A DNA stretch of 64,000 nucleotides, taken from IMG/VR virus record IMGVR_UViG_3300028920_002946, positions 32,001 through 96,000 of that record. The stretch is one strand, 5' to 3'. The notes under the pieces are model-generated. The model did no database searches, was not told where the DNA came from, and saw only the letters and a program-made list of their open reading frames with translations. Shown in pieces: positions 39,827 to 57,980 of this stretch (position 1 is the stretch's first letter; the number at the start of each line of letters is the position of its first letter). This DNA comes from a virus. The position numbers and the translations under genes were made by a program.

Positions 39827-40228
39827 CTATTCCCCGGGGCCGCCCGGTTTTGGTACCTCGTACGGGTTGGCCAGCATAGAGAAGCTGTCCAGCGTGAACT
39901 CCATGCCGGGTGCGTCGAAGTGGCGCAGGTCGATTGTCTTGACCGGCTCGCCCTCGCCGAAGAAGACAAGACGGTGCTTGACAGGCTGCCCGTCCAGCCG
40001 GAGCAGCTGCACGTCGTTGACCTTCACCTTCAACTCGCGCGCGATGCGGCTGTAGTCCGGGTCGGAGATGAATTTCTTCTTCTGACCCGGCGTGAGGTAC
40101 ACTTTTCTCTCCGTACCGGAGACGGCCGCCTCGATGGCGTTGCTGACGGCGTCGATGTCCGCGGCCTCCTTGAGGAGGCCCTTGGACTCCAGATCCGACG
40201 CGATGCGGTCGAGTCTCTCGGTGATCAT
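39827..40228 (-). CDS. Hypothetical protein with N-terminal LESKG helical tag
   Basis: MITERLDRIASDLESKGLLKEAADIDAVSNAIEAA, followed by an unrelated ~95-aa domain; 4-nt overlap with the upstream gene. Confidence 0.75.
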   Translation of the reverse strand: MITERLDRIASDLESKGLLKEAADIDAVSNAIEAAVSGTERKVYLTPGQKKKFISDPDYSRIARELKVKVNDVQLLRLDGQPVKHRLVFFGEGEPVKTIDLRHFDAPGMEFTLDSFSMLANPYEVPKPGGPGE

Positions 40229-40686
40229 TCCCCGTCCTCCGGCTCGTCTATGTCGAGCACGAGTTCTATTTCGAAGTCGATGGTGCCTTTCCCCTCGTCG
40301 ACATCCGGCATGTAGTCCACCTGGTCCTCCCAGATGTAGTCGTCGAAGTCCTCGTCAAGGTCGCTGGTGTCGAGGTCGGAGTACGTCTTCTTGAGGTAGG
40401 GGATCAGCTTCGGGTTGATCTCCTTCTTGAGATCCCCCTCGTGCTCCTCCACCCAGTCCATGATGGCGGCGTTGAGGACGCGGTAGCTCTCGGGGATCGC
40501 CCCGTCGAACGACAGCCTCATCTTCGCCCACACGTCGACCTGGGCGAACATGTCCCGCTCGCCGTCCGCGACGGCCTCGACGGTCGTCTCGTCGACGCTC
40601 TCGAAGCCGAGGAACTCGACGTCCTTGAGCCGGAGGTTGCGCGAGGCCGCCACCTTCATGGCCTGTACAGCTGAAAGCCTGAGCAT
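40225..40686 (-). CDS. Acidic hypothetical protein
   Basis: 153 aa, operon-coupled; N-terminal AMKVAASR motif. Confidence 0.65.
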   Translation of the reverse strand: MLRLSAVQAMKVAASRNLRLKDVEFLGFESVDETTVEAVADGERDMFAQVDVWAKMRLSFDGAIPESYRVLNAAIMDWVEEHEGDLKKEINPKLIPYLKKTYSDLDTSDLDEDFDDYIWEDQVDYMPDVDEGKGTIDFEIELVLDIDEPEDGE

Positions 40687-40694
40687 CGTCGAAC

Positions 40695-40922
40695 CTACCT
40701 GTAGGTTTTACCGAACTCGCCGTCGTCGGTGTTGGTGAAGTTGGCCCCGTCGATCCCCGTCACGCCCTGGTCCCAGTCGGTCGGCTGCAGGGGGGCCTCG
40801 TACACCTCACCCATGATGCCGGTGTACCCCACGGCGATGTCGATGTCGGTCGATATCTTGTACGGCCCCATGGCGGGGGAAACCGACCCTATGGTGCCCT
40901 GGTTCGTCTTTTCCGTTGCCAC
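40695..40922 (-). CDS. Small hypothetical protein with GxTG motifs
   Basis: 75 aa; contains GYTG and GVTG; fills the gap in a tightly packed operon. Confidence 0.6.
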   Translation of the reverse strand: MATEKTNQGTIGSVSPAMGPYKISTDIDIAVGYTGIMGEVYEAPLQPTDWDQGVTGIDGANFTNTDDGEFGKTYR

Positions 40923-40940
40923 TTTGCGGCCCCCGTCCGG

Positions 40941-41225
40941 TTATCCCCTGCGCACGTCGCTTCCCATGATGCTCGCGCAGAGGCTCTTGAGAGACTTGAT
41001 GTTGTCCGCGTGGGAGAGGGCGTCGATGGGCGCCTGCCTCATGAAGTACGCGTCCTTGAGCTTCTGGAGGATTTCGTTGTTCTCGAAATGGAAGAACACC
41101 TTCCTGGTATCCCTCGTCGTCCTCTTGATCTTGTTGCCCGCCGTGGTGAGGAAGGCGGCCAGGTACAGGTCGCAGGTCTTGTAGCCGTCCTCCGTGGCTA
41201 TCAGGTCGCCGTGGATGTTTCCCAT
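40941..41225 (-). CDS. DUF5659-like small protein
   Basis: YKTCDLYLAAFL...G......RKVFFHF....L...YF.....IDAL.....IKSLK pattern, recalled for DUF5659. Confidence 0.6.
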   Translation of the reverse strand: MGNIHGDLIATEDGYKTCDLYLAAFLTTAGNKIKRTTRDTRKVFFHFENNEILQKLKDAYFMRQAPIDALSHADNIKSLKSLCASIMGSDVRRG

Positions 41226-41280
41226 GCTGTTCCCCTATCGCTATCTTCGATTTGGCCCCGGAACGGCCCATTTAAGCGAA

Positions 41281-41311
41281 AGGTTGCCGAGGCTCCGAAC
41301 CCCGACAACCT
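41281..41311 (-). terminator. Stem-loop (terminator-like) after the 147-aa gene
   Basis: Minus strand AGGTTGTCGGGG-ttcggag-CCTCGGCAACCT (with G-U pairs), followed by TTC; weak U-tract. Confidence 0.4.
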
Positions 41312-41341
41312 CGCGATGTCACTCCTGATGTCGGACGACCA

Positions 41342-41785
41342 CTACAGGTCGCTGTTGCCGTAGTAGTAGCCGGTCTCGCCCGAGGCGGGCGCGCCCGTGA
41401 CGCCGGACTGGTCGTTGGCCAGATTCGCCATCACCGCATCGGTGAAGAGGCCGGAGCCGGTGTCGCCGATGTCCTGCCGCGGCCACTCGTCGGCCAAGGT
41501 GAACGTGCCCTCGGTGAGCACCAGCGGCGCGCCGTTGTGCCCGGTGAACACTGCCGAACTCGCGGCCGTCGAAAAGTACTTGAGGACCCCCTGCAGCATG
41601 CTGAACTGCACCTCGTCCGTGATCTCGAGCACGATCGTCTGTCCCCAGACGATGTATTGGTCCTGCCCGATGTTGTATCCGCCCTCCTGGCCGCCGCCGA
41701 GGCCGAGCCTCTTCGTGCAGTCCCTCAGGTAGATCTTGCCGACGTTCGTGCCGAAGTATTCGACCTTGAGCTGATTGTCTGCCAT
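41342..41785 (-). CDS. Hypothetical structural protein with GxTG-rich C-terminus
   Basis: 147 aa; GDTG, GVTG and GETG in the last ~45 aa. SD AAGGAGG; late-promoter motif upstream. Confidence 0.7.
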   Translation of the reverse strand: MADNQLKVEYFGTNVGKIYLRDCTKRLGLGGGQEGGYNIGQDQYIVWGQTIVLEITDEVQFSMLQGVLKYFSTAASSAVFTGHNGAPLVLTEGTFTLADEWPRQDIGDTGSGLFTDAVMANLANDQSGVTGAPASGETGYYYGNSDL

Positions 41786-41860
41786 CTCATCCTCCTTGGA
41801 TGTGCCTCTCTCTGTTGCTGTTGTTGGCCCCGTGCGGGGCCTGACGTTATTTCAATCCCT

Positions 41861-41874
41861 ATTACTAGATAATT
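41861..41874 (-). promoter_or_regulatory. Candidate late promoter
   Basis: AATTATCTAGTAAT. Confidence 0.65.
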
Positions 41875-41877
41875 ACA

Positions 41878-43173
41878 CTACATAATCATAGCGTGGCTGT
41901 TCCAGAAGGCCTCCGACTGCGACAGCTCCTCGGGGGTGTGCTGGTGGCCTGACCCGCCGCCCTTGATGCCCTTGATGTTTCTTCTGATGGTCTCCGGCGC
42001 CATGGGCGTGCCCGCCGGGGTCGGTTCCGCGTTGAAGGTGATGATGTCCCAGTCCGCCCCTGTCGGCCTGCCGTCCGGCTCCTTCTCGAGCTGTGCCTTG
42101 GAGTACAGCACGACATCGACGTGGTCGGAGGGGATGGGTTGGACGTCCTTGGCCTCGAAATACCTCTGCTCGTACTCCTCCTCGAAGTCGCGCCTCTTCG
42201 TCGTCCTGGTCTTGAGGAGGGGTTCGTTCTGGGGCGTTATCTTGGCGATGGGGCACTTGATGTTCGGATCCTTCACCCTTGCTATCCTCACGAAGTCCGC
42301 ATAGCCCAATTTGGCCTGCCCCGTGCGGATCTGCCTCTCGGCCTCCTTGCGGAGGCTCTCCATCTGCGCGCGCGAGAGTTTCGTGCCGACGAAGTCCGGC
42401 TTCGCCTGCCTGAGCGCGAACTTGTTGATGCCCACCGCCGCCTCCGCATCCTGCTGCGCGGCTGCTGCCTCTATGGTGTTCGAGACGATGTCCAGCTCCT
42501 CGGCCTCCCGGACCAGGCCCTTCGACTCCAACCTTCCAGCTATTTTGTCGATAGCCTCGGCGCATGCATATTTCAAGCCGCTGTATTTGTCCGCCAGGGA
42601 TTCCGAGCCGCCATACTTCTCCATCTGCTCGGTCTCCTCCTGTTTGTCCCATGCGGCGCGCTGCTGCTGCGCCCGCTGCACCATGGCCTTGACCTCGTTG
42701 GGGCCGAGCCTCTTGGCCGTCTGGAACATCTGCTCCACCTTCGCGGCGGGAAGACGACTTAAGATGTTCTGCGTCCAGCGGCCCATCCCGCCGGGCTGCT
42801 CGAAACCGGGCACCACCAGCCAATCGCGGAGTTGCTTACCCTTAAGGCCGACTGCGACCTCGTAGGCATCGTAATCCCCGGGATTGGGGAGATCCTTCTG
42901 TGGGATGCAGTTATGCTTCTGCGAAGCCTGTATCGAGAATGAAAGGCCGTTGGGAAGGTCTATCGGCTCGTTCATCTGAGGGTCGTCGGTTCTTCTTTTG
43001 AGTCTTCTGATGAACTCGTAGTTCGCCTTGCGCGCCTGCGGGGCGCGGGGGTCGATAGCATACGCTTCAACCGTATTGGACACGGTGTCCAGCTCCTCGG
43101 CTTCCTTAAGGAAACCCTTCGACTCGAGGGAGTTGGCGATCCCGTCAATCTTCGAAGCTATCCTGTCGTACAT
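41878..43173 (-). CDS. Two-cargo tagged protein: tag + unknown domain + tag + DUF3228-like domain
   Basis: Two LESKG tags. C-terminal FALRQ...GT...GYADF...ITPQNEPLL...VVLYSKAQL..E......DWDII...PMAPETIRRN.....GGSG......SEAFWNSHAMI matches the DUF3228 pattern as recalled. Confidence 0.75.
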   Translation of the reverse strand: MYDRIASKIDGIANSLESKGFLKEAEELDTVSNTVEAYAIDPRAPQARKANYEFIRRLKRRTDDPQMNEPIDLPNGLSFSIQASQKHNCIPQKDLPNPGDYDAYEVAVGLKGKQLRDWLVVPGFEQPGGMGRWTQNILSRLPAAKVEQMFQTAKRLGPNEVKAMVQRAQQQRAAWDKQEETEQMEKYGGSESLADKYSGLKYACAEAIDKIAGRLESKGLVREAEELDIVSNTIEAAAAQQDAEAAVGINKFALRQAKPDFVGTKLSRAQMESLRKEAERQIRTGQAKLGYADFVRIARVKDPNIKCPIAKITPQNEPLLKTRTTKRRDFEEEYEQRYFEAKDVQPIPSDHVDVVLYSKAQLEKEPDGRPTGADWDIITFNAEPTPAGTPMAPETIRRNIKGIKGGGSGHQHTPEELSQSEAFWNSHAMIM

Positions 43174-43176
43174 CGG

Positions 43177-43896
43177 TCACCCCAAGTATGAGTTGGTTTC
43201 GTACTTGCCGGACGGCATCTTGAACCACGACACCACGAGCTTCGCGTTCTCGATCGGCGTGCGCATGCCGTCCCTCGGCACTTCCCCCAGAGACGCCACG
43301 TCCATGATCGCGCGCCCCTCCCTGCCGGTAAGGAACCCCTCCCACTTCGTGCCGTCCTCGGCTATCGCGACGAGGCCGTTGTCCTCGAGTGCCTTGAATA
43401 TCTCGTCCAACGGTATCTGCGGCCGGTATTCCTTCGACACCTGGCTCAGGATACTGTTGACGCGCTTGCGGCGCGGATCCGATGCCTTCAACATAGGCTT
43501 CGTCTCGCCGGCGTCGATGGTGTTCGCGACGATATCCACCTGCTCGGCCTCGGCGAGGAGCCCCTTGGACTCGAGGTCGTTCGCGATTCTGTCCAAGGCG
43601 CGAGCCACGGACGCTTGAACCGCTTGCGCGGGCCCGCCGATCATGTTCAGCATCTCCGGCGTGATCGGCTTATCGTAAAAGGTGTCAGCTTCATCCTTCG
43701 CGATCTCCCTCGCTTGGGCCACAGACGTTACCACGGAACTGCGTGACACACCGTATCTCGCGTATGTGGTGCCCTCGGCCTCGCGTATTTTGTCCAAGAC
43801 TTGGGCGACGCTGTCGGCAAGTTGTTTGCTGGCGAAGACACCAATAGTCCTAGAACCCTCGTAGTCTCGGGAGAGATAGACCTCATAGATATCCAT
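43177..43896 (-). CDS. Hypothetical protein with internal LESKG tag separating two domains
   Basis: ARALDRIANDLESKGLLAEAEQVDIVANTIDA in the middle of the protein. Confidence 0.75.
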   Translation of the reverse strand: MDIYEVYLSRDYEGSRTIGVFASKQLADSVAQVLDKIREAEGTTYARYGVSRSSVVTSVAQAREIAKDEADTFYDKPITPEMLNMIGGPAQAVQASVARALDRIANDLESKGLLAEAEQVDIVANTIDAGETKPMLKASDPRRKRVNSILSQVSKEYRPQIPLDEIFKALEDNGLVAIAEDGTKWEGFLTGREGRAIMDVASLGEVPRDGMRTPIENAKLVVSWFKMPSGKYETNSYLG

Positions 43897-43910
43897 GGTC
43901 GATCTCCGGC

Positions 43911-44345
43911 CTACGGCGTGACATCCAAGACGCCGGCGATGCTCGGGTCGGTATCCTTCTCGACCTTGATCGGGCGCCAGATGTCGGTGTCGGGGTCGAA
44001 CCCGTAGATCTTCTGGCGAAGGGTCGGATCGATCTCGTCGAGGCGCGGCACGATTATCACCGGGCCGGCCGCCCCCTCCGCTCCCGCCGGCGTGACACCC
44101 TTGAGCCAGAGATAGACGGGCGTGATGCTGTTGAAGGGCCTCGGGAAAGCCACAACCACGTGGTGCTTGCTGTAGTACGCGTCGGCCACGTTGGGGATGT
44201 CCCCGATCAGCAAGGCATCATCGATGCCGAAGTTGCTGGCCCTGTACAGGTTCCAACGCGCGTAGGAGCCATCGAGGTTGAGGTCCCAGAAGACCTCCGT
44301 CTTGTCCCCGTTGAATGCGATCTGGACGGTCGGGGCAACAGCCAT
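43911..44345 (-). CDS. Hypothetical beta-rich (FN3/Ig-like) structural protein
   Basis: 144 aa; VFWD...WNLYRA...YLWLKGV; late-promoter motif upstream. Confidence 0.6.
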   Translation of the reverse strand: MAVAPTVQIAFNGDKTEVFWDLNLDGSYARWNLYRASNFGIDDALLIGDIPNVADAYYSKHHVVVAFPRPFNSITPVYLWLKGVTPAGAEGAAGPVIIVPRLDEIDPTLRQKIYGFDPDTDIWRPIKVEKDTDPSIAGVLDVTP

Positions 44346-44404
44346 GTGGGGCCACCTTTATTGTCTGTTCGAGGGGGCGAAGCGCCCTCCGCAAGGCATG
44401 CCGG

Positions 44405-44418
44405 ATGAAAAGATTATT
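44405..44418 (-). promoter_or_regulatory. Candidate late promoter (tagged-protein operon)
   Basis: AATAATCTTTTCAT. Confidence 0.6.
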
Positions 44419-44422
44419 CGAG

Positions 44423-45301
44423 TCAGCGGCCCGGGTTGCCGCGGCGGTCGCCGCGCTTGAAGTCCCGCACCCTCTTGAAGGCGCGCCCGAGGTGCCTGCG
44501 GTACTCCTCCGTGTCCGCCACGTCGATGTGCTCGCGGACGTACCCCATGATGGCCCTGAAGGCCGTCACCGTGGACTCGACGTCCGACATCGCCGCGTGC
44601 CACCCCTCTATCTTCACCCCCAGGGCCTGCAGGACCCTCTCCAGCGTCGCCGAGGGCCTCCCCTCGGCGTTGCGTATGCCCGACAGCACCTTGGCCGCTG
44701 TGGCGTCCCCAGAGGCCTCCAGCGCCTCGAGCATGGGGTAGAAGAAGAACCTGGCGAACAGCATGGTGTCCCAGACGCCGCGGTTGGGGATCCTCCCCAC
44801 CTTCGTGGCGACCATGCGCAAATCGAACTCCGGGTTGTGGCCCACGAGCAGGGCGTTGTGCCTCGCGCAGAAGTCCTTGAACTCCCGCAGAACCTCCATC
44901 TCGGGCCGGGCCTCGAGGCCGCTCTCCTCGTACCTGGTCATCTTGAGCACGTCCTCGACCGTCATGTGCCGCTTGTCGGCGGGCGTATTCTCGCCAACCT
45001 TCTGCTGCTCGATCTGCCTCCGCGTCTGATCCGTGAGCGCTGCCCGGGCGTGCATCGAGTCGATCTTCTTAAGGTCGGGGCCGCGGACGGCGACGGCGGC
45101 CACCTCGGTCACTTGGTGCGTGTGCTGGTCGAGGCCGGTCGTCTCCGTGTCGAAGAAGATGAAGGTCTCACTCGACAGGCGGTCGAGAAGCTCCCTGAGA
45201 GGCCCAAGATACTTCGCCTTGCCCGTGCCCGCCATCCTCTCCAGATAGGCTTCCACGACCCTCAGGCGCCTGCTCCCCATCCTGTGCATGCTCATCGACA
45301 T
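44423..45301 (-). CDS. DEDDh 3'-5' exonuclease (DnaQ/epsilon-like)
   Basis: ExoI FFDTETTG, ExoII LVGHNPEFD, WDTM, ExoIII HAAMSD. Confidence 0.9.
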   Translation of the reverse strand: MSMSMHRMGSRRLRVVEAYLERMAGTGKAKYLGPLRELLDRLSSETFIFFDTETTGLDQHTHQVTEVAAVAVRGPDLKKIDSMHARAALTDQTRRQIEQQKVGENTPADKRHMTVEDVLKMTRYEESGLEARPEMEVLREFKDFCARHNALLVGHNPEFDLRMVATKVGRIPNRGVWDTMLFARFFFYPMLEALEASGDATAAKVLSGIRNAEGRPSATLERVLQALGVKIEGWHAAMSDVESTVTAFRAIMGYVREHIDVADTEEYRRHLGRAFKRVRDFKRGDRRGNPGR

Positions 45302-45315
45302 ACACAGATAAGGGC

Positions 45316-45329
45316 ATTAGTAGGAAATT
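45316..45329 (-). promoter_or_regulatory. Candidate late promoter (exonuclease), 1 mismatch
   Basis: AATTTCCTACTAAT. Confidence 0.5.
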
Positions 45330-45486
45330 ACTTCCGGATGGGTTCGACGATTTTGCAGAGGTAGCACTCCGTCCAATTCACGGACATATCCTCGTAGAGA
45401 GCGCGGGCGTCGAGTTCGTCCCCGAACGGAATCACCTCGACGGGCGCGTCATCGCGCTTGCGGATCACGATCCACTTGGGTTCCAC
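45328..45486 (-). CDS. Small hypothetical protein (52 aa, GTG start, not in ORF track)
   Basis: (M)EPKWIVIRKRDDAPVEVIPFGDELDARALYEDMSVNWTECYLCKIVEPIRK*; GC3-rich codons; no clear SD. Confidence 0.45.
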   Translation of the reverse strand: MEPKWIVIRKRDDAPVEVIPFGDELDARALYEDMSVNWTECYLCKIVEPIRK

Positions 45487-45505
45487 GGGATCTCGAATGC
45501 GAAAT

Positions 45506-45577
45506 TAATATTAGTTAATATTAAAACGGCTGCCATCGGCATCCGACGGTGCAAAACTAATATTAGTTAATATTAAA
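45506..45577. repeat. Two exact 20-bp AT-only-type direct repeats TAATATTAGTTAATATTAAA, 52-bp period
   Basis: Copies at 45506-45525 and 45558-45577. Each holds two TAATATTA palindromes; the second copy overlaps the MT-A70 stop codon. Confidence 0.85.
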
Positions 45578-46133
45578 TCAGAGACAGGTCCACATCACAG
45601 TCAATCTCGTCACCCCACACATCCCATCCGACAGACTTCTGCCTAGCGAACAGCTCTATTCGCGGAACATCGCCGCAAACATCAACAATCTTTCCCCGTA
45701 TGTCATCAGGCTTTTTAGAATGACCGCCTCTTTGATGCATAAACACATTAGGAATTCTACTCACGGTATCAACCGTAAACCTTCCTCGAGTACCAAACAG
45801 AATATGCTCAGTCGCACCCCTGAAATAAAATCCCATGCCATTGTTAATGACATTTCCTTGCTTATCAACCTTCACCCAGGTAAGAGTTGTTTTGTAACTG
45901 AATCCCCAAGCACTCATAACCTCAAAACCATACACTATCTTAGGATTCGTAACCCACAGAAAAAGGGCGCTGTTGTCGTCCGCTATCTCCGAAACAGGTA
46001 GCCGACAGATCTTCTCAACCGTCATCGTACCGTAATGGGCCTGCGGATTTCCCCCACGAGCGGCTTTTCTCCGCTTCTTCATCTTACCGTAATCCCAAGG
46101 GGGGTCGGCGTAAATAACGCTATACCTCTTCAC
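45573..46133 (-). CDS. MT-A70-family N6-adenine methyltransferase
   Basis: VIYADPPW, LFLWVT, WGFSY...WVK, MGFYFRGATEHILFG, HSKKP, RIELFAR, GWDVWGDE. GTG start overlaps the upstream TGA (GTGA). GC is about 42-47% in sampled lines. Confidence 0.9.
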   Translation of the reverse strand: MKRYSVIYADPPWDYGKMKKRRKAARGGNPQAHYGTMTVEKICRLPVSEIADDNSALFLWVTNPKIVYGFEVMSAWGFSYKTTLTWVKVDKQGNVINNGMGFYFRGATEHILFGTRGRFTVDTVSRIPNVFMHQRGGHSKKPDDIRGKIVDVCGDVPRIELFARQKSVGWDVWGDEIDCDVDLSLI

Positions 46134-49100
46134 CCCTTGAACTTCTCGATCCACCCGTCCGCGATCTTCTCCCACGAGTACTCCTTCATCTTCGCCTGCG
46201 CCTTGTCAGCCCACTCTCTTCGATAGTTGGCATCCGTGAGTAGCTTGATCGACTCCTCCACAAATCTATCCGTGTACTCCTTCGGATAGTCGGCGTCCAT
46301 GGGCAGGCCGTCGCCCGGAATGAGTATCCCGGACGGCCCAACGGTCGTCTTGAGGCCCGCGCGGTCGGTGGAGAGTATCGCATTGTGGGACAGGCCGTTC
46401 TCGACGGCGCCTATGCAAAATGTCTCGTCAAACCAACAGGGATAAAGCCAGACGTTGGCCCTCTTCTGATGCTCCGCCAATGTGGCCTTGTCGATGCGAT
46501 CAAGATACTCGACGCCCGGCTGCTCCATCGCCGCCTTGATCTTCTGGATGAAAGCCATGCCCCTCTGGTCGTTCCTGCGCTTCACGGCCGACTCCCAGTT
46601 GTAGAAGCCGTAGGCCACCTTCAGCTTGAAGTCCGGGACGGCCTTCCGTATCTCCGGCATCATCTGCAGCAGCTGATACAGGCCCCTGTCCGGACTCGAC
46701 GAATACACGGAGCAGTTCTCCTTCGCGGAGTCGTCGACGTCATTGTACAGATCCTGCACGACGCCGTTGGCGGTGAGGAACATCTTCTCGGGCGGCAGCT
46801 GCTTGTGGTGGCCGCAGAGGAACTCCTTGTGCCAATCGGAGAGGTAGGCGTACCCCTGCACCTTCCACGCCATCACATCGTAGTTGGGGTCGGGGTTCAG
46901 CCATATGTCGTGCACCATGACGTAGTTGCGCCCGCTGTGCAAACTCTGCCTCATGGGCTCGCAGCTACGGGACGATATGAAGTAGTCGATGTAAAGGTAC
47001 TGTATGTCCTCCATCATCTTCGTGTGATCCACGTACCGCACGGCGCCGTAATCGACGCCCCCCTCGACGACCGGGTCGAGGGCCACATCGTCCTTCGAGT
47101 CGGCGAGGAGGTCGTTGTAGACGGTGGCCTCGTAGCCCTTCCTCACGAACGCGCGCGCGAGGTACGCGGCCCACGTCTCCGACCCCGCCATCCCCTCGTC
47201 CACCCTCCGGCGGTTCCACGGCTCCCACGCGGGTCCCGTCCAGATGGCGATGCGCTTCCTCTCCCACTTCCGCTTGAGCATGACATGGTTCTCGCGGTCC
47301 TCGGCGTCGTAGCTCTCGCGGTCCTCGTCCTGGTAGGCGCCGCGGCTCACGCCCCCGAAGTGGAACACGAAGGAGCCGATCGACTGCCCGCACGCGAACC
47401 CGGCCTTCCCAAGCCGCATGCACAGGTCGAGATCCTCGCAGCCGTTCTTGAACCGGGTGTCGAACAGCCCAACCTCGTTGATGGCGCTGCGCGCGAATAT
47501 GGTGGCGTAGGCCGCGACCCACTCCTGCGGCTGGAAGATGTCCCTGTGCCTCCTGTTGGAGGCCTCCATGAACTCGTACAGCTCGTCGATGTGCGGGGTG
47601 ATCTCCTCCAGCTTCATGCCGGGGTGCAGCTCGACCCCCGCCCTCTCCAGGCGCATCGGGTAGGTCGGCTTCCCCGGGGCGCCGTGAAGCCATGACCTGT
47701 CGCAGTTCGACAGGACGCCGCAGGACGCCAGCCGGTGCACGGTTTCCATGTGCCTGACCATGTTGCCGAGCCAGCCCTTGGACACGACGACGTCGGAGTT
47801 CATGATGACGAAGAACTTGCTGCGCGAACTGCGTACCCCCGCGTTGCAGGCCTCCGAGAAGGTCTTTCGGGCCCCCTCCTCGCCGAGGACCGTTATCCCC
47901 TTCAGCGTCCTCAGATACTCCCACACCTCCGGCCCGCTCCCCGCGTCGCTGACGACGATGTGGAACGGGTGCACCGTGTTGAGGCGTATGGAACTGAGGC
48001 ACAGCTTGAGGTACTCGAGGTTGTTGTAGTTCGGGATCACGAGGTCGACGACATCCCGCGCCTTCTCCACGCTCGCGGGTGCCTCCGCGTGCTCCAGCCT
48101 GATGGTGCCATTCACGAGGCTGTCGAAGAGGTTGATGTAGTTCTGGACGTTGTTCTCGAGCCTGTAGGGGGCGACCGACCTCTTCGCGGCCTTGCCCACC
48201 CGGCGTCGCTCGCCCACGTCCCCCAGCTTGCGGAGGGCCTCGCCCCACTCCTCCTTCGTCTCGGCGATGAAGCCGTTCTCGCCGTGGGCGATGATCTCCT
48301 TGTAGGCCTGCAGCGGGCTCGCGATGACGGGCATCCCGAAGGCCATGGCGGTCGTCGCCTTCACGCTGCTCTTGCCGGGCTGCACGTCGACCCTCTGCGG
48401 GCAGAGGGCCACGTCGCAGGCGGCGAGGTCGTCCGGCCACGTGTCCGGGTCCCACTTGATGTCGGCGTTGTCCCACTCGGAGATCACCACCAGGTCGTAT
48501 CCGGCCGACTCGATGGTGTCCCGGAGGTGGTCGGTGACGAGGAAGGAGTTGCCGCCCATCCCCATGAACACGGCCTTCGGCCTCTCCCCCTTGATCTCCT
48601 TGTATTGGTGGGGCTTCCGCGGTTCGCGCTCCTCGACGCTGTCCTTGAGCACGACCGTGTGCAGGAACCCCCGCTCCCGCGTCATCTCCGCCAGCTTCGT
48701 CGAGCAGCAGAGGATGGCGTCGGCCTCGTGCATGCACTCGTCCTCGAGGGGGAACCCGAAGATGCCCTCGCAGTGGTCGAAGCATATCCTGCGGTTCTTG
48801 GCCTTCATGGCCCGCATCAAGTCCAGTTCGGCGGGGCCAAAGCTCGTGAACACGACGACGTTCGCCGTGCCGACGGCCTCCTCGACATCCTCCGCCGACA
48901 TGTTCTGGTACCCCACCACCCTGCGGCTCTCCACCCTCTTGCCCCGAAGCTTCTCGTCGATGATGAGTCGACGCAGTCTCGTGGAGGGGTTGGTGGCGTC
49001 GTCGTTGGGCAGCAGCCACACGACGGACGTCTTGCGGTGCTTGCGCAGTCGAAGGTCGGCGTGCAGTCCGTTGTTGGCGAGCACCTCCACCATGAGATCG

Positions 49101-50287: not shown

Positions 50288-50608
50288 CTACAAGGTGTAT
50301 CCGACGACCGTCATGGTCTCATAGTCCGGGATGCCCTCGCCGTAGACCCTCGTCAGCTCCCCGAGGAGGCCACCCCGCGATCTGCAGACGGGGTCGTGCT
50401 CCATGTCCAGCAGCCACTGCGGGATGTCCTCCAGACTGCATCTGTGGATAAAGGACACCGTGGCCACCTTTATCGTGTTCCCCCCGAGCGCCCTGATCCC
50501 GACCTCCGTGCCGATTTGGAGATCCGACCATTTCGTCCCCCGGCGGATCGTGACCTGTGTCTTGCCCTCCTCGTGCACGTTGTTGCCGTCGAACAATAGC
50601 ACCCTCAT
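50288..50608 (-). CDS. ASCH-domain-like protein
   Basis: EEGKTQVTIRRG (GxKxxTxR variant)...LQIG; 106 aa. Confidence 0.55.
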   Translation of the reverse strand: MRVLLFDGNNVHEEGKTQVTIRRGTKWSDLQIGTEVGIRALGGNTIKVATVSFIHRCSLEDIPQWLLDMEHDPVCRSRGGLLGELTRVYGEGIPDYETMTVVGYTL

Positions 50609-50617
50609 ACCACCTCC

Positions 50618-51061: not shown

Positions 51062-51103
51062 ATGGTTCCCTATCTGGAATGTGTATCTACCTGATATGCC
51101 CCG

Positions 51104-51117
51104 ATTAGGAGAATATC
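51104..51117 (-). promoter_or_regulatory. Candidate late promoter (FmdB-ASCH-GT-MTase operon), 1 mismatch
   Basis: GATATTCTCCTAAT. Confidence 0.5.
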
Positions 51118-51167
51118 AGGCCCTTCCAGCCGTATACACTCTAATTTACTAGATGGAACCTGAAATC

Positions 51168-51470
51168 TTAAAGCTCCGGCGCGCGGATTCGCACGACCAT
51201 GTCGCCGTCGTGGCTGAGCAGGCGCATCTCGCGGTCGGTGGGGAGGTTGCGGTACTTGAGGTACACGGTGCGGAGCCTTCCGATGCCCTCGGGGATGTAG
51301 TCGAACTCGACCTCCTCCGGCATCGCCAGGACGATGGCCTTGACCATCTTGGGCGTCGCGTACAGGATGCCCGGTATGTGGTCCCTCGACTCCATCAAGT
51401 CGAAGGCGCCGAGTATCGCGGCTCTGACATCCGCGCCGTCCCATTCGAAGTCGACAACATCGAAGGCCAT
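51168..51470 (-). CDS. Hypothetical protein (100 aa)
   Basis: ATG at 51470 overlaps the upstream TGA (ATGA); MAFDVVDFEWDG... It is the real tail of the spurious 51168..53768 track ORF. Confidence 0.65.
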   Translation of the reverse strand: MAFDVVDFEWDGADVRAAILGAFDLMESRDHIPGILYATPKMVKAIVLAMPEEVEFDYIPEGIGRLRTVYLKYRNLPTDREMRLLSHDGDMVVRIRAPEL

Positions 51471-52930
51471 CAGAGGTTCTCGTTCTGGTTGGGCTCCGAG
51501 GACGGCCCGCCCCCCGGCTCCCCGTGCTCCGCGCCCTCGCCGGCGGACTCCTGGGTCTCCTCGGGGGGCTGGTTCGGGAGAACGGCCCGCGTGCCGGGCC
51601 TCTTGTAGGTCGGGCCCTCCGGCTCCCGCCCGTTTTCGGGCTGGACGACCTTGCTCATGAGCTCGTACGCCCTCTCCACCAGGCGCGGGCTCGGGGGCTT
51701 GCCCTCCATCGCGTCCTTGACCAGAAGGTAGAATATCTCCTCGGGATGCTCGACGAGCGTCTCGAGGACCCGGATCTTGGCCGCGTCGTCGCGGTCGGTG
51801 TATGTCTCGCGGAACCACTGGTCGAGCTGGACGTTCTGCTGGCGGTTCCTGAAGAAGTTCGTGTAGTAGAACCTCGGGAGCCTGGGCCTGCGCGAGGACA
51901 GCCTGCGCTTGATCTCGTCCAGGTCGAACGGGAACCCCATGAGGCGCTCCCACTCCCTGGCGTTCATGACCTTCGCCGGGGGCCCCACGCGGGGATACCG
52001 CCTGTAGTGCATCAGTATCCGAAGGTTCCGGGACTCCAGCCAGTTGTAGCACGCCAGGACATGCTTGCAGACCCTGAAGTTCAGACCCCTGCCCGGGTTC
52101 GCGCGGCCCCCCTTGAAGCTGGACACCATGTCCTGCGGCACCGGCGGGACGAGCGACGGCCTGAACCCCGGCATCCACATGTACTTGCCGTTCACGGCGT
52201 AGTACTGCGCGCCGAAGAAGAGGAAGGACGGGCAGGAGCAGCTCAGCTGGACCGGGTACTGCAGATAGCTCCGCGGCCTCGCCCGGCCCTTGGGGCGCAG
52301 GAACTGCATCGTCACCGTGCGGATGTCCGGGCTCGACTGCGACTGGCAGCGGAACCGGAACAGGCCCTTGAGCATCGAATCCTGCTCCGAGTCCATGAGC
52401 GTGACGCTGACCCTCCCGGCGCGCCGGATCTTCTGGTCGTTCTTGTAGTGGTAGTCGTGGTTCACGACCTCGTCGAGCGTGGCGGCCTCCCTCCCCATCG
52501 ACGCGAACTTGCGGTCGATGCTGATGGCGGGCCTCTGCTCGCTCGGGTCGGCCGTCCAATCCTTGTCCCTCGCCTTGAACCACTCCTCGAGCACGCCCTG
52601 CGGCCCGTACCTGTTCGGGCTGTTGAAGATGCCGTACTCGGCGTCCGGCTCGTAGGGCCAGTCGTTCGAGAAGGGCGGGGAGCCCCTCATGTCCTTGGGC
52701 TTGTCGCTGGGGTCGCGGTAGTCGTACGGGTTGTACGCCGTGAAGGTGGGCCGGGGGCGCTCGCCCCTGCGCCGCATGTCGCGCAGCATCTCGGAGACGA
52801 CCTCGGGCTCTTTCGCCTTGCTGCCCTCGTTCCTCTCCTCCATGTACTCCAGCCACGACAGGTCGTCCGTCGGCCCCTGGTCCTCCAGGTACCGGGAAAC
52901 GACCTCCATGGGTGCTGCGGCGAGCGCCAT
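51470..52930 (-). CDS. SWIM-type zinc-finger protein
   Basis: LSCSCPSFLF...RVCKHVLA (CxC-xn-CxH). Confidence 0.7.
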   Translation of the reverse strand: MALAAAPMEVVSRYLEDQGPTDDLSWLEYMEERNEGSKAKEPEVVSEMLRDMRRRGERPRPTFTAYNPYDYRDPSDKPKDMRGSPPFSNDWPYEPDAEYGIFNSPNRYGPQGVLEEWFKARDKDWTADPSEQRPAISIDRKFASMGREAATLDEVVNHDYHYKNDQKIRRAGRVSVTLMDSEQDSMLKGLFRFRCQSQSSPDIRTVTMQFLRPKGRARPRSYLQYPVQLSCSCPSFLFFGAQYYAVNGKYMWMPGFRPSLVPPVPQDMVSSFKGGRANPGRGLNFRVCKHVLACYNWLESRNLRILMHYRRYPRVGPPAKVMNAREWERLMGFPFDLDEIKRRLSSRRPRLPRFYYTNFFRNRQQNVQLDQWFRETYTDRDDAAKIRVLETLVEHPEEIFYLLVKDAMEGKPPSPRLVERAYELMSKVVQPENGREPEGPTYKRPGTRAVLPNQPPEETQESAGEGAEHGEPGGGPSSEPNQNENL

Positions 52931-52939
52931 TGCGGCCCC

Positions 52940-53998
52940 CTACAGTATGTCGGAGACGTCCAAATCGTCCCCGAGGTCTATGCCCTCGTCCGCCGACCCG
53001 GACGTCAGCTTGCTCCTCATGGCCCCCTTGGACATATCCTCCTCGGGGCGCCTCGTCACCTTGGCGACCTCCCGGGCCTCCGGGTTGCCGACCACCTCCA
53101 CCTGCGGGCTGTTCGGGGCGGAAACCGTCCCCTTCTTGCTCGCGGGCGTGGAGGCCTTCTTCGCAACCGTGTTCTGCTGCACCACCTGGCGCTTTCGGGC
53201 CTCGGCGTTCTGCTTCGCGCGCGCCTTGGGGCCGCGGTCGGTGACCTTCGCCACCTCCACGCCGCCGGCCTCGCCCTCGACCACCAGGTGCTTGCGCCCC
53301 TTCTCGGCGGGCTCGGGCGGCGGGGCGGTCTCCTTGACCACCCTCTGGCCCTCCACCACCGGAAGGTGGCCCTCCTCGATGTCCTCGGCGAGGGTTATCG
53401 CCCCGTCGGACGACTCGGCAGCCTGCCGCGTGCTCTCGGAAACGGTAGCCGCCACGCGAGCGTCCCCGTTTTGGGCGCGGATTTCGCCGCGGATGTCGTC
53501 CATGTCGCTCTGGACCACGGTATCCTTGTCGGAGTAGCTCTGGCTCTCGTACTCGCGCACGATCTGCCCGAGGTCGTCCGTCTCGACGCGCGCCGCGCCG
53601 GCGCCGCGCCCCGTGCGGCCCTTGTAGAAGTTCTGCTCGATCGCGGGGTCGCTCTGCTCGACCTGCCTGCCGCCCATGGCGTTGTACGTCCTCGCCGGGT
53701 TCACGACAGGCCGATCGTGCATGTCGGGATCCTCCGCCTCCTCGTCGCCGTCGGCCTCCTGCAGCCACTCGCCCTCGCGGACGGCGACCTTGAGGGAGGA
53801 CGACGACCCGCGCACGTCGCCCACCTGGAAGTTGACCCCGTCGTAGTCGATCATGTCGCCGGGGCCGACCTCGAGATTCTGCTTGCCGCCCTCATAGCTG
53901 ATGCTGAACGGCTGCGTCACGATGTACCTCTTCATCCTGTTGGCCACGTGGCCCTCCTTTTGGATAGGGATGTCCTTTGTTCTGTATATGGCGCTCAC
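52940..53998 (-). CDS. Hypothetical low-complexity protein
   Basis: 352 aa, charged, probably largely disordered; 4-nt overlap with the upstream gene. Confidence 0.65.
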   Translation of the reverse strand: MSAIYRTKDIPIQKEGHVANRMKRYIVTQPFSISYEGGKQNLEVGPGDMIDYDGVNFQVGDVRGSSSSLKVAVREGEWLQEADGDEEAEDPDMHDRPVVNPARTYNAMGGRQVEQSDPAIEQNFYKGRTGRGAGAARVETDDLGQIVREYESQSYSDKDTVVQSDMDDIRGEIRAQNGDARVAATVSESTRQAAESSDGAITLAEDIEEGHLPVVEGQRVVKETAPPPEPAEKGRKHLVVEGEAGGVEVAKVTDRGPKARAKQNAEARKRQVVQQNTVAKKASTPASKKGTVSAPNSPQVEVVGNPEAREVAKVTRRPEEDMSKGAMRSKLTSGSADEGIDLGDDLDVSDIL

Positions 53999-55236
53999 GC
54001 CGCGGATCCCCGCAGCGGTATCTCCTCCACGTCCTTGTCCGAGTTCTTGAAGACCACCTTGTCCACCTTGAACGTCCTGCCCCTGAAGGAGTCGTCGCCC
54101 AGCACCCTGTCGCCCCTGCCCTTCTTCACGTAGGCGATGGTGATGTGCGGGACGTACGTCGGGTAGGAGTTCTCGTTCGGGACCGCCTTCTCTATGGCGT
54201 AGTGCAGGTCCTGCAGCTCCGGGGACTCGGCGTCTATCTTCACCACGTCCTGCTTGTCCGAGTCCTTGAAGACGGTCACCAGGCCGAGCCTGACCTCGAA
54301 CGGCCCCACCTTCCCGACCTCCGACCGCAGCGTGTCCGTGACCCTCCTGGGCTTCAGCCCGTAAAGCAGGGTGATGTGCATCTCGTCCTCCCTGCCGGCC
54401 GTCCCGTCGTCGTCCTCCTTCAAGTCGGCGTCGGGGACGTTCTTTTTGCCCCAGGCGATGATCTGGTCGCCCAGATCCTTCGGGAGGTCCACCTGCGTGG
54501 TGGAGTGGTCGTACTCCCCCTCGCTGTTCGCCTTCTTGTTGCGCGGGAGCGCGGGCTTTCTCGGCCTCTTGCCGTCGCGCACGTCGCGCAGGAACTTGAA
54601 CAGCGCGTCAAGGCTGTCGAACTCCTCGTAGGAGCCGCCGGAGCCTATGTCGTCCAGGAACCTCTTCTCCCTCTCCGAACCCTTGCCCCCGCGGTAGAAC
54701 AGCACGTGGTCGACGTTCAGGACGCAGGCGAGCTCGTCGTATATGTTCTCCTCCGGCTCCCAGTCCTCGTCCGTGGGGTCGATGAAGGCGAAGTCGCCCC
54801 CGAACTCCTCGACGACGGCCCTGCGCCATTTGTCGCCGTCCGAACACCGGCCGCCCAGGAAGACGGACGGCTTGTCTGACTCGATGGCCTTGAACATCCT
54901 CCCGCGGAGATCCGACGCGAACTTGGCCACGACCGACTCGGGGGAGGCACCCTCGTGCATGGGCACGTACTCCCCGCCGACGTACCTGAACTTGGGGTTC
55001 AAGGACTCCATCCTATCCCAGGGATAGGCTTCCAAGACACCCTTGAAGTCCGGCCCCAGGTCGTTGATCGAGATGACGCGCGCCGGATCCCCGCGCATCG
55101 GGGGGAGCCTGACGCTCCTGCCGTCCCTCAAATCCTGGATGACCCGTTTGACATCGCCCCCGGGCAGACACTCGAAACAGAGATCCACGGTTTTCCCGCC
55201 GTGGGAGGCCCATGGGGCGGCGGTGCGGTCAGTCAT
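53995..55236 (-). CDS. Nucleoside 2-deoxyribosyltransferase-like domain fused to a 2H phosphoesterase (Acb1/gp57B-like)
   Basis: SVFLGG.C...WRR...FIDP...W......YDEL..V..VDHVLFY (NDT-like). Two 2H motifs, EMHITLLYG and VPHITIAY. ATG 55236 with SD GAGGGGAGG. Confidence 0.8.
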   Translation of the reverse strand: MTDRTAAPWASHGGKTVDLCFECLPGGDVKRVIQDLRDGRSVRLPPMRGDPARVISINDLGPDFKGVLEAYPWDRMESLNPKFRYVGGEYVPMHEGASPESVVAKFASDLRGRMFKAIESDKPSVFLGGRCSDGDKWRRAVVEEFGGDFAFIDPTDEDWEPEENIYDELACVLNVDHVLFYRGGKGSEREKRFLDDIGSGGSYEEFDSLDALFKFLRDVRDGKRPRKPALPRNKKANSEGEYDHSTTQVDLPKDLGDQIIAWGKKNVPDADLKEDDDGTAGREDEMHITLLYGLKPRRVTDTLRSEVGKVGPFEVRLGLVTVFKDSDKQDVVKIDAESPELQDLHYAIEKAVPNENSYPTYVPHITIAYVKKGRGDRVLGDDSFRGRTFKVDKVVFKNSDKDVEEIPLRGSAA

Positions 55237-55307
55237 CAAGCCCTCCCCTCTCCGGGGACTCCCGCTTTGTAGACAATATAATGGCTCGGAGCCCCATTCT
55301 TAACCCT

Positions 55308-55517
55308 TCAAAGTTCGATAAGGGCTTGGGCGGCGCACCTGACGGCCTCGGAGGCGCATTTCCTGGACTTCTTGCCCTTCTTCTTGTCCCTCCGGCGCCA
55401 CATGCTCAGGCAGATGGCGACCGACTGGTCCTGCGGCCTGTCCTCCTCCTTGCGCATGGTGTGCATGCACTCGTCCATGAAGGCCGGCTGGCTCTTGAAC
55501 CTCTTGGGGTCGGGCAT
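55308..55517 (-). CDS. Small basic protein (phage head-associated F-x-x-x-C-M...Q-x-x-A-I-C-x-S-x-W motif)
   Basis: PAFMDECMHTM.......DQSVAICLSMW; SD GGAGGA. Confidence 0.6.
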   Translation of the reverse strand: MPDPKRFKSQPAFMDECMHTMRKEEDRPQDQSVAICLSMWRRRDKKKGKKSRKCASEAVRCAAQALIEL

Positions 55518-55526
55518 CTCGTCCTC

Positions 55527-55805
55527 CTACTGCGTCTTGTCCACGGGCACGTCGTCCGTCCTCGGCGCCGGCGCCCCCTTGCCGTTGCGCGTCTCGCCGA
55601 AGTGCTGGGCCGCCTTGGCGCCCAGAGTCAGGGCGACGAGCATCGCCTCCTCGGCGCCCATGCTCACAAACCCCCCGCCGTTCACCATCGCGACGACGTT
55701 GTGCGCCACAAAGACGCCCATGATGGACGTCACGACCATGGCCGTGGCGACCCTCATCATGCTGACCTTGCCGTTCGCATCGCCCTTCAACACGTGACCC
55801 ATCAT
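55527..55805 (-). CDS. Two-TM membrane protein, holin-like
   Basis: SMMRV + hydrophobic helix; second helix ending GAKAAQHFGE. Confidence 0.5.
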   Translation of the reverse strand: MMGHVLKGDANGKVSMMRVATAMVVTSIMGVFVAHNVVAMVNGGGFVSMGAEEAMLVALTLGAKAAQHFGETRNGKGAPAPRTDDVPVDKTQ

Positions 55806-57247
55806 CTCTGGCCCCCCTTGATGACCTCCCCGACCTCCAGAAGCTTCTGCATCATCAGGCCGCTCGGTATCATGACCTCCCTCACGGCCTCCTCGAGGTC
55901 GGAGGGGTCCTGCATGTCAGCCTTCGCCTTCCTCAGCAGCGCCGCGGCGCCCTCGAACACCCTGATGTACTTGTCGTACATCTCGTCGAACAGGTTCTTG
56001 GTGTTCGTGACCTCGGCCTTGGAGTCCGCGATGTGCTCCGGCAGCGACTTGATGCGGACGCCGTCGCCCTGCCTGAAGATGCCGGCCGCCACCTTGCCCT
56101 CGAGGCGCGACGCCAGGGCCTCGTAGCCCCTCCCGCGTAGGTTGGCGGCGCACCTCCGCACGAGGGAGGAGGCCGAGGAGGCGACGATGCGCTTGTGGCC
56201 GCGCTCGTACTTGTCGATCAGCTCGTAGATGACATCCCTTTTCGCCGTGTCCCTCTCGGACATCGCCTGCGACTCCAGGAACCGCAGCGTCGGGTCAGCC
56301 CGCGCCGGGATCCCCTTCCGCAGGGCGCCGGCGGGGGACGGCTGCGAAAGCCAATGCTTCCCCTCCGCAGCCTGGCGGCCCGCCGGGGAAACCTCGCCGG
56401 CCTTGGCCGCGTCTATCAGCTCCCGGAACCACCGCTTGCGCTCGGGGTCGGTTTCCCTCTGCATCTCCCTCGTGAGGTAGTCCGACACGAGGACGCCGAC
56501 GACGCGCGGCGAATAGGTGGCAGGCGACTCCCGGCCCGTCCCCGGCTCGATTTCGGTGTACGGCTCGCCCCTCCGCAGCATGGGAGCGCCGTACGGCACC
56601 TCGCGGGGCTCCCTTCCCGGCGGCGCGCCCCGGCCCCTCGGCCTCCTCGCCGGCGGGGTCCACAGCGGGGGCAGCGAGGCGGCCACCTCCTTCACGAGGG
56701 AGGCGTATTTCTCAAGGCCCCTCTGTTCCAGATCGCCCATCAGATCCTCGAGCGAGGGCGCGGGCCCGGCCGCGCTGCGGTCCGCCCTCTCCTCCGTCCA
56801 ATTTCTCCTGTCCCCGAGGTAGTCTTCGATGTACCCCTTGGCGGCCTCGGAGAGCCACCCCTTGATTTCGGCGTCCGACTTGAACGCGCCCAGCTCGCGG
56901 AAGGTGACATTCCCCCCGCCGGCCTCGTCGACCGACAGGAGGGCCCTGTCAGGCGGGACCCCGGCCGCCTTGGCCTTTTCGGTCAGCGACGCGAGGCTCG
57001 GTGCGGGGATGTCCACCCTGTCCAGAACGTCGCCGGCGCCGGCGCCCCCGGCGCCCGCATAGAGCCTCATCCCCTTGTTTCCGAACCGACCGACGCCCGG
57101 GCCGATATTCCTGTCCCGCGCCGAGTCATAAAGGTTGGCCACGAGGGCGTTCTCCGGGAAATCCACCACATCGTAACGGCCCGTCGGCTTCGGCGTCGGC
57201 GGCTCCGGAACATCGTGGGGGGACCAGACGGCTGCGCGCTCGCTCAT
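55802..57247 (-). CDS. Multi-segment hypothetical protein with degenerate LESKG-like tags
   Basis: GDLEQRGLEKYASLVKEVAASL and SLVRRCAANLRGRGYEALASRLEGKVAA. Confidence 0.65.
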   Translation of the reverse strand: MSERAAVWSPHDVPEPPTPKPTGRYDVVDFPENALVANLYDSARDRNIGPGVGRFGNKGMRLYAGAGGAGAGDVLDRVDIPAPSLASLTEKAKAAGVPPDRALLSVDEAGGGNVTFRELGAFKSDAEIKGWLSEAAKGYIEDYLGDRRNWTEERADRSAAGPAPSLEDLMGDLEQRGLEKYASLVKEVAASLPPLWTPPARRPRGRGAPPGREPREVPYGAPMLRRGEPYTEIEPGTGRESPATYSPRVVGVLVSDYLTREMQRETDPERKRWFRELIDAAKAGEVSPAGRQAAEGKHWLSQPSPAGALRKGIPARADPTLRFLESQAMSERDTAKRDVIYELIDKYERGHKRIVASSASSLVRRCAANLRGRGYEALASRLEGKVAAGIFRQGDGVRIKSLPEHIADSKAEVTNTKNLFDEMYDKYIRVFEGAAALLRKAKADMQDPSDLEEAVREVMIPSGLMMQKLLEVGEVIKGGQR

Positions 57248-57260
57248 GAGTCTTCACCTT

Positions 57261-57980
57261 TCATGCGGGAAAGTATCCCCCGATCCTGTCGTCGAAATAC
57301 TTGACCTTCCGCGGCGGCAGAAACGACTTCAGCCCGCCCACGTAGTAGGAGAAGGAGTCCGCCCAGTCGTCCCACGGGTTGCGGCGGGCGTAGAACCTCG
57401 TGTACCCGGCGTCCGGGTCGTACCACCACTCGCCCGTCATCTCGGGGGCGCCTCGCTCCCTTATGCGGAGCCTCCTCAGCCCCGGCGCGGGCTTCTCGGA
57501 CCATTTCGAAAGCCCCGTCCAATCCGGCCGCTTGCTCAGTTCCAGCCCGCCGGCCCCCCGCGCCTCGTCCCAGCCGTGCCCCAGCTCGTGGAACAGCGTC
57601 TGGTCGAACTTGTCGAGGCTCGCGCCCGCGTCGGGATCCACCTCGAAGAGGCCGTCGTCCAGCAGCCTGCTGTTCAACACCAGGGCGCCGTTGCTGTAGA
57701 CACCGTGGTTGGGGAAGTACTCGCGCGACTCGCCCATGTCCTCGAAGCCGATCGACGTGACGCCGCAGTCCCGCACGAGCGTTGGCGGCAGCCTCGATAT
57801 GCTCTCCCCCAAATGGCGCAGGCAATCAATGCCGGGGTGGCCGGTAACGGTGATGCCGTACCTGCCCTTGAGCATGGACAGTATCTCGCCGCGGTCGACG
57901 GAGTCGTCGAGGTCCGCCGCGACGCGCCTCAGCTTCCTGGCGATTTTGACGGTAAGCAAATGTCCCTCCACAGACACCAT
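57261..57980 (-). CDS. Zincin metallopeptidase (lethal-factor/MPTase-like)
   Basis: TLFHELGHGWD (HExxH) and FYARRNPWDDWADSF. An alternative TTG start at 57959 follows a GGAGGG SD. Confidence 0.75.
   Translation of the reverse strand: MVSVEGHLLTVKIARKLRRVAADLDDSVDRGEILSMLKGRYGITVTGHPGIDCLRHLGESISRLPPTLVRDCGVTSIGFEDMGESREYFPNHGVYSNGALVLNSRLLDDGLFEVDPDAGASLDKFDQTLFHELGHGWDEARGAGGLELSKRPDWTGLSKWSEKPAPGLRRLRIRERGAPEMTGEWWYDPDAGYTRFYARRNPWDDWADSFSYYVGGLKSFLPPRKVKYFDDRIGGYFPA

Follow-up and report, generated by a model that had tools for sequence, protein, structure and literature searches.

Tag copies and tagged genes of the window

This analysis concerns a short protein module, here called the tag, that is attached to unrelated domains in several genes of an uncultured phage represented by IMG/VR record IMGVR_UViG_3300028920_002946. 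The record contig (G000) is 182,677 bp long, and the window, which means the whole 64,000-nucleotide stretch that was analysed, covers its positions 32001-96000; all real genes of the window lie on the minus strand. A first-pass annotation of the window had described four near-identical copies of the tag in three genes. A hidden Markov model (HMM) built from the copies and run on a six-frame translation of the whole 182.7-kb contig recovered the four copies in three genes (encoding proteins of 431, 239 and 133 amino acids, aa), at 75-83 bits and E ~1e-22 to 1e-24 each, but the compared copies are only 45-67% identical in pairs over a 33-aa core, and the description "near-identical" is not sustained. 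Two further copies outside the window bring the contig to six copies in five genes. Degenerate copies had also been proposed in the 57247, 57261-57980, 30753 and 22411 proteins; none was reported by the six-copy HMM (E<10) or by an HMM of 166 metagenomic tags (E<100). Within IMG/VR the tag is found on three contigs, one of which, referred to below as G001 (466,729 bp, 98% complete), has 12 tagged genes including a tandem run of five. The tag copies of the contig and the domains attached to them (cargos) are listed here in window coordinates, except for the two outside copies.

43042-43173, minus strand: tag copy B, N-terminus of the 431-aa protein (open reading frame, ORF, 41878-43173), 82.8 bits
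42580-43041, minus strand: first cargo of the 431-aa protein (aa 45-198, "PNGLxFSIQ" domain), aligning with the post-tag domain of P0039
42448-42579, minus strand: tag copy C, internal in the 431-aa protein, 82.1 bits
41884-42429, minus strand: second cargo of the 431-aa protein, a DUF3228 domain (aa 249-430; Pfam PF11539, E 1.2e-27)
43624-43896, minus strand: N-terminal domain (aa 1-91) of the 239-aa protein; its homologue is the N-terminal part of the G001 DUF3228 protein (BLASTP E 3e-9)
43492-43623, minus strand: tag copy D, internal in the 239-aa protein (ORF 43177-43896), 81.2 bits
43180-43491, minus strand: cargo of the 239-aa protein (aa 136-239), common to P0046 and P0052
40109-40228, minus strand: tag copy A, N-terminus of the 133-aa protein (ORF 39827-40228), 75.4 bits
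39827-40108, minus strand: cargo of the 133-aa protein, a singleton after tag masking
L001:9040-9549, plus strand: extra tag copy outside the window, in a 169-aa protein, same HMM
L001:1736-2230, plus strand: extra tag copy outside the window, in a 165-aa protein, same HMM

Each copy had been said to adjoin a different domain, and with the tags masked the five tagged proteins of the contig indeed separate into different clusters. The 431-aa protein consists of two tag-plus-cargo units fused together, each of which stands alone in relatives (tag and "PNGL" domain in P0039; tag and DUF3228 alone in P0040, P0047, P0074 and L060), which bears out the proposal that the tag can be chained into multi-cargo polyproteins. 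Wherever DUF3228 occurs in the relatives, the tag lies directly before it. The cargo of the 239-aa protein is found in P0052 with an N-terminal tag, and the homology of the N-terminal domain of the same protein to that of the G001 DUF3228 protein shows that modules have been swapped between genomes at the tags. The G001 gene syntenic with the 133-aa gene is also tagged, but the two proteins show 38% identity over 85 aa. Little can be said of the cargos by name: that of the 133-aa protein has no Pfam or PHROG match, no tagged protein of the contig matches a PHROG, and for DUF3228 a Foldseek search gave only the structural-genomics entries 2pd0 and 4fbd (apicomplexan proteins of unknown function), with no literature mention of the domain found.

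Genomic setting

The four window tags lie between the capsid and sheath genes, in two operons that are each headed by a late-promoter-like motif.

61095-61976, minus strand: major capsid protein (phrog_2522, E 3.6e-54)
44405-44418, minus strand: late-promoter-like motif, heading the operon 43911-44345, 43177-43896 and 41878-43173
41861-41874, minus strand: late-promoter-like motif, at the head of the operon extending from 41342-41785 down to 39827-40228
22480-25428, minus strand: tail-sheath homologue (marginal in Pfam: E 1.2e-5, 25.7 bits where the cut-off is 26.9)

Tail proteins are encoded at coordinates below the sheath gene, and the capsid, sheath and tail genes around the tags place them in the late head-to-tail region of a myovirus, whose head-assembly cluster runs on past the end of the window. 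The motif, AATNNTCTNNTMAT, occurs 13 times in the contig where 0.1 copies are expected, and 12 of the 13 are on the minus strand inside the virion module. The two copies listed head both tag-bearing operons, so that the late-motif assignment made in the first-pass annotation stands for all four window tags. In G001 the motif is only weakly recognisable (6 copies, 1.9 expected).

Capsid protein identity is 72% with the uncultured 485-kb phage LR745208.1, 48% with Tunturiibacter phage Tunturi_5 and 39% with Bacillus phage G. Since identical proteins are present on a 463,769-bp contig, the 183-kb record is a fragment of a genome of ~460 kb. Between the record contig (guanine-plus-cytosine content, GC, ~62%) and G001 (GC 49%) the capsid protein is 93% identical, most other shared proteins being 40-70% identical, and judged from these values it is under unusually strong constraint.

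Several other genes of the window deserve a brief record. A 94-aa protein (40941-41225, minus strand), the gene for which shares its late operon with tag copy A, has a DUF5659 match (E 5.5e-9). A 414-aa protein (53995-55239, minus strand) has both a nucleoside 2-deoxyribosyltransferase-like region and a 2H phosphoesterase domain, the latter matching 2_5_RNA_ligase2 (E 2.7e-12) and Acb1 (E 3.1e-6). In the tail region, the protein encoded at 13233-14573 (minus strand) has a C-terminal Tlde1 domain (Pfam E 4.2e-11) and may be a cell-wall-acting virion enzyme.

Sequence, predicted fold and selection on the tag

The tag is predicted to be an acidic helix-turn-helix of 33 residues with the consensus [IL]-x-x-x-L-D-x-[IV]-A-x-x-L-E-x-K-G-[LFY]-x-K-E-A-x-x-[LIV]-D-x-[IV]-[SA]-N-T-[IL]-E. 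In a logo of 166 tags about 14 residues are near-invariant (L10, D11, A14, L17, E18, K20, G21, K24, E25, A26, D30, N34, T35 and E37, each at 77-100%), about eight of them polar, and the mean net charge is -4. The tags end in N-T-[IL]-E-[AK], and conservation collapses abruptly past position 38. An AlphaFold2 model of the 431-aa protein, for which 13 homologues were used, gives for copy B a helix at residues 2-18, a turn and a helix at 22-40 (predicted local distance difference test, pLDDT, 68-81 in 10-residue blocks), and for copy C helices at 193-217 and 221-241 with a turn between them. Block means over both tags are 65-81, and the tags are modelled as separate from the confidently modelled DUF3228 domain; the first cargo is modelled poorly (pLDDT <50 over much of the domain).

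Comparison of the copies in this genome at the level of codons shows 67-74% identity at positions 1 and 2 and only 36-45% at position 3, with no identical run of DNA longer than 8-16 nucleotides between copies. The third codon positions are saturated, which indicates that the copies are old and that conservation acts on the protein; an element at the level of DNA or RNA was rejected on the same identities. A DNA-binding motif of the SAP type (helix-extension-helix) was also considered and rejected, there being no Pfam match and the charge being opposite.

No counterpart of the tag was found among described proteins. None of the 150 best metagenomic members has a Pfam family covering the tag, the PDB sequences hold no relative (best match E 0.3), a search of the ESM Atlas was uninformative, and tblastn of the tagged proteins against 50,697 deposited phage genomes gave nothing meaningful. 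Nor was a family model or a paper describing such a module found.

Distribution and portability

A survey of the genome and of metagenomes with a tag HMM, as suggested in the first-pass annotation, yielded, besides the two extra contig copies, a large set of metagenomic proteins. The six-copy profile was searched against 1.84 billion proteins and matched 676 representatives (of 50%-identity clusters) at E<=1e-3, of which 103 matched at E<=1e-10. Tag positions and cargos were catalogued for the best 150 of the 676 representatives, to which the following counts apply. The 177 tags in these proteins are N-terminal in 111 cases, internal in 50 and C-terminal in 16 (C-terminal tags are also present in the complete genome G001), and many proteins have two or three tags, some directly adjacent. 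With tags masked the proteins form 91 cargo groups, 77 of them singletons, in agreement with the earlier suggestion that the tag is portable. Few of the cargos have a Pfam match: DUF3228 was found in six proteins and NT5C in three, while TMEM65, AAA_33 and a few uncharacterised domains are single cases. A match to P0010, which has TPR repeats, was judged a false positive. Portability and chaining of the tag are thus directly shown.

The metagenome data gave 78 loci with the tag, often as adjacent tagged genes, and most of these have other proteins in common with the record contig or G001; their GC content ranges from 30 to 62%. The tag was not detected by profile search in LR745208.1, Tunturi_5 or phage G, which have a related capsid protein. 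As far as these comparisons reach, the tag is a trait of one subclade of phage-G-like megaphages, and its confinement to one phage subclade points to a phage-encoded binding partner; the GC range, which implies very different hosts, favours the same conclusion. A hunt for the partner gene, in which the proteins of tagless LR745208.1 were subtracted from those of G001, left 115 candidates, as only 69 of 608 proteins were shared. A single-protein scan gave two contigs from metagenome-assembled genomes. One (L101, CAZMCS010000070.1; 5.3 kb), binned in a Muribaculaceae genome, has two tagged genes encoding proteins of 204 and 680 aa, and is probably megaphage DNA binned with a bacterial genome; the other was a false positive in which the HMM found no tag.

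In relatives, tagged genes lie within the head cluster itself, for example in G001 (276217-276672) just upstream of the protease gene and in L052 just upstream of the scaffold-like gene. Other recurrent neighbours were also recorded. The phage encodes a DnaJ-like protein (a J domain with a zinc-finger domain), a phospholipase of the patatin-like kind, and, adjoining an NAD synthetase, a protein with a weak match to NAMPT (phrog_448, E 7.2e-5), and in relatives tagged genes repeatedly stand beside each of these; their positions are listed jointly as L104:7606-8616 (plus strand), L161:857-1840 (minus strand) and L104:15269-17692 (plus strand).

Homology of the tag to a head-cluster protein

The only detectable relative of the tag was traced from a weak tag-profile match in G001 to a protein of the head-assembly cluster, P0160, which is encoded beyond the end of the window. 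Two acidic proteins of this cluster are relevant here.

L103:6699-7847 (contig 99699-100847), minus strand: P0160, 382 aa, carrying a tag-like helix-loop-helix
62668-63879 of the window, minus strand: 403-aa acidic protein, net charge -46, encoded where a scaffold gene is canonically found, with the protease gene on one side and the decoration and capsid genes on the other

The gene for P0160 lies between the portal gene and that of a 964-aa protein with a head-maturation-protease domain (phrog_18299, aa 528-664), and a late motif is found just upstream of it at contig position 100916. In the P0160 family (18 homologues) a conserved segment at aa 277-318, SVVGAIDEIAEMVEKEARDKEDLDLFRIAFQLDCVSDYLSG, aligns with the tag. 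With hhalign, the six-copy tag alignment matched the family at E 6.8e-6 (probability 85%) and a 20-protein tag alignment matched it at E 4e-5 (probability 70%), the alignment spanning the whole tag with one 7-residue insertion in the loop. Reciprocally, an HMM of the P0160 segment, run on 3353 six-frame ORFs of the contig, placed P0160 first and exactly the five tagged ORFs at ranks 2-6, for which the chance probability is ~3e-16. By eye about 13 of 16 conserved tag positions are retained in the segment, distant family members have a shorter loop and match the tag more closely, and the tag profile also matches the P0160 homologues of G001 and G002. As judged from these alignments, the tag is homologous to the P0160 helix-loop-helix, being either derived from it or of common ancestry with it.

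The AlphaFold2 model of P0160 has a hairpin of helices 276-298 and 301-317 (pLDDT 75-85 in 10-residue blocks), and the rest of the protein, the net charge of which is -26, is mostly disordered or helical. Some homologues have a second, half-tag-like element followed by an inserted domain. The family is present in tag-bearing genomes (the record contig, G001 and G002), and was undetected by profile search in tagless LR745208.1, Tunturi_5 and phage G. Homology and co-occurrence of the tag with a head-cluster protein lend independent support to prohead targeting.

P0160 and the 403-aa protein have in common the motif AGSKKGPG[VI]PDGTGP(F/R)GGTDEC, which in the metagenomic tagged protein P0110 directly follows the tag. 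This motif could be an assembly or cleavage signal. The 964-aa protein (L103:2991-5885, minus strand; contig 95991-98885, just past the window end) has in addition a Hint (intein) domain from about aa 104 (Pfam Hom_end_hint, E 6.4e-9), so that the prohead protease gene appears to be interrupted by an intein.

Comparison with known packaging signals

In phage T4, non-essential proteins that are otherwise unrelated to one another are brought into the prohead's scaffolding core by the capsid-targeting sequence (CTS) of IPII, IPIII and Alt, and the CTS functions when fused to foreign proteins (PMC9958956, PMC7411985). The tag resembles it as a portable element with dispersed and variable cargo genes. 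However, the CTS is an N-terminal peptide of ~10-20 residues that is cut off by gp21, whereas the tag is a predicted folded hairpin with a 33-aa core that may be N-terminal, internal or C-terminal (111, 50 and 16 of 177), may occur more than once in a protein, and has a homologous segment in a protein of the head cluster.

A closer structural likeness is offered by the C-terminal helix-turn-helix of the P22 scaffold protein (residues 268-303), through which fused cargo, including multi-enzyme polyproteins, has been loaded into procapsids (PMC9962691). That motif, which belongs to a head-assembly protein, is an amphipathic helix-turn-helix of similar size (~36 residues), and the hairpins predicted for the 431-aa protein (2-40 and 193-241) and for P0160 (276-317) are of this type; the tag looks like a natural version of the arrangement. 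No sequence relationship to the P22 motif was detected, the tagged proteins and P0160 matching no PHROG or Pfam family that would link them to it, and the basic face and C-terminal location of the P22 motif are not shared, as the tag has a net charge of -4 and the P0160 segment ends ~65 residues ahead of the C-terminus.

Phages SPN3US and phiKZ are, like the present phages, giant myoviruses, and they package many proteins. SPN3US has N- and C-terminal targeting propeptides (PMC7411985), and the propeptides of ejection and inner-body proteins and at the C-terminus of the protease in SPN3US and phiKZ have been proposed to target the prohead core (PMC7411985, PMC13282480). These are 64-130 residues long and specific to a protein or paralogue family, whereas the tag is a single short module on about a hundred unrelated cargos. 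Outside phages, the cargo-loading peptides of encapsulins and the encapsulation peptides of bacterial microcompartments are portable, terminal or interdomain elements that dock diverse cargo inside a protein shell, and encapsulin shells have the HK97 capsid fold of tailed phages. Such peptides are ~10-18 residues long, unrelated in sequence to the tag, and serve cellular compartments rather than virions.

Possible roles of the tag

The reading favoured here is that the tag is a module for loading proteins into the capsid or prohead, copied from the docking hairpin of a head-core or scaffold-type protein; the chances that this is correct appear about even. P0160 would be the prohead core or scaffold-type protein, and its helix-loop-helix would dock to a conserved partner in the assembling prohead, candidates for which are the scaffold, the portal, the inside of the capsid and further copies of the hairpin itself. 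Any protein bearing a streamlined copy of the hairpin would then follow P0160 and be co-assembled into the prohead. A tag together with its following domain behaves as a cassette that is gained, lost, swapped or fused head to tail, the last of these giving rise to internal tags. Placement of tagged genes in late operons, and in the head clusters of relatives, agrees with such a role.

A number of observations weigh against loading into the prohead. Virion modules account for only about half of the tagged genes. Among the neighbours of the others are NAMPT and NAD synthetase, an amidase, a DnaJ-like protein and a lipase of the patatin-like kind, and a scan of the contig for the late motif found none near the two tag copies outside the window. 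Some cargos are unlike capsid passengers (the NT5C nucleotidase, the AAA_33 kinase-like domain and the membrane domain TMEM65), the cargos do not stand apart from the proteome background in net charge, and their transmembrane content was likewise uninformative. For P0160 no match was found in Pfam, in PHROGs or by fold, and a Foldseek search of BFVD with its model was empty, so that the scaffold or core role ascribed to it is drawn from gene position and composition. The helix-turn-helix of the P22 scaffold binds the acidic N-arm of the coat protein by means of basic residues, and the tag, being acidic, is unlike it in this respect. Finally, the phages that bear the tag are uncultured and are known here from their genes.

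The strongest alternative, though an unlikely one, is a general role of the tag in docking or oligomerisation. Tags would pair as four-helix bundles or bind a cytoplasmic hub, which may include P0160, and enzymes would be assembled during infection with nothing being packaged. From the logo and the model, a lone amphipathic hairpin of 33 residues is unlikely to be stable by itself, which suits a pairing module, as do the proteins with two or three tags, the adjacent tags among them, and the working of tags at any position in a protein. The nucleotide-metabolism enzymes among the cargos, and the genes for NAD salvage, DnaJ-like and patatin-like proteins beside tagged genes, would also fit such a module. 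On the other hand, the one relative detected for the tag is a segment of a head-assembly-cluster protein, tagged genes are inserted within the head cluster of relatives, and self-association would in any case be compatible with incorporation into the prohead.

It is considerably less probable that the tag serves to be recognised by a chaperone, protease or host factor, for instance as a mark for DnaJ-like clients or as a degron. In at least seven related contigs a tagged gene is immediately upstream of the DnaJ-like gene, and the near-invariant polar face of the tag suggests a single conserved partner; however, those contigs are syntenic and the adjacency may reflect a single event, the very different hosts implied by the GC range favour a partner encoded by the phage, and the homology to a head-cluster protein would be left unexplained. 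That the tag is a mere conserved junction for cassette recombination, with no binding function of its own, is very improbable: modules flanking the tags have been exchanged between the record contig and G001, but saturated third codon positions, the short identical runs of DNA and conservation of the protein, including its eight or so polar residues, speak against a junction.

Implications for megaphage head assembly

Returning to the prohead-loading module, a wider and more tentative proposal, to which slightly less than even confidence is given, is that a clade of phage-G-like megaphages of ~460 kb has made a head-core docking hairpin into a universal address label, so that the product of any gene gaining the 33-residue cassette would be loaded into the capsid. 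Cassettes bearing the label would be shuffled and chained by recombination, and each phage would have a different, fast-evolving set of at least a dozen pre-packaged proteins that enter the host with the DNA.

How giant phages choose the proteins that are packed beside their DNA is largely unknown outside T4. The tag provides a marker that can be searched for in sequences, by which several hundred proteins of uncultured megaphages, almost all without a known function, become candidates for packaging, and P0160 as its candidate parent narrows the search for a receptor. It also suggests a compact natural tag for cargo loading into large capsids of the HK97 fold. Should the capsid reading be wrong, the tag would still be a docking module not described before and conserved to an unusual degree, by which a dozen proteins in each genome are organised. 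If capsid targeting is true, what is new is a folded and chainable element, independent of position and similar to part of a head-cluster protein, in place of a short N-terminal peptide, and it would be a natural counterpart of the engineered loading of cargo into P22 and encapsulin shells.

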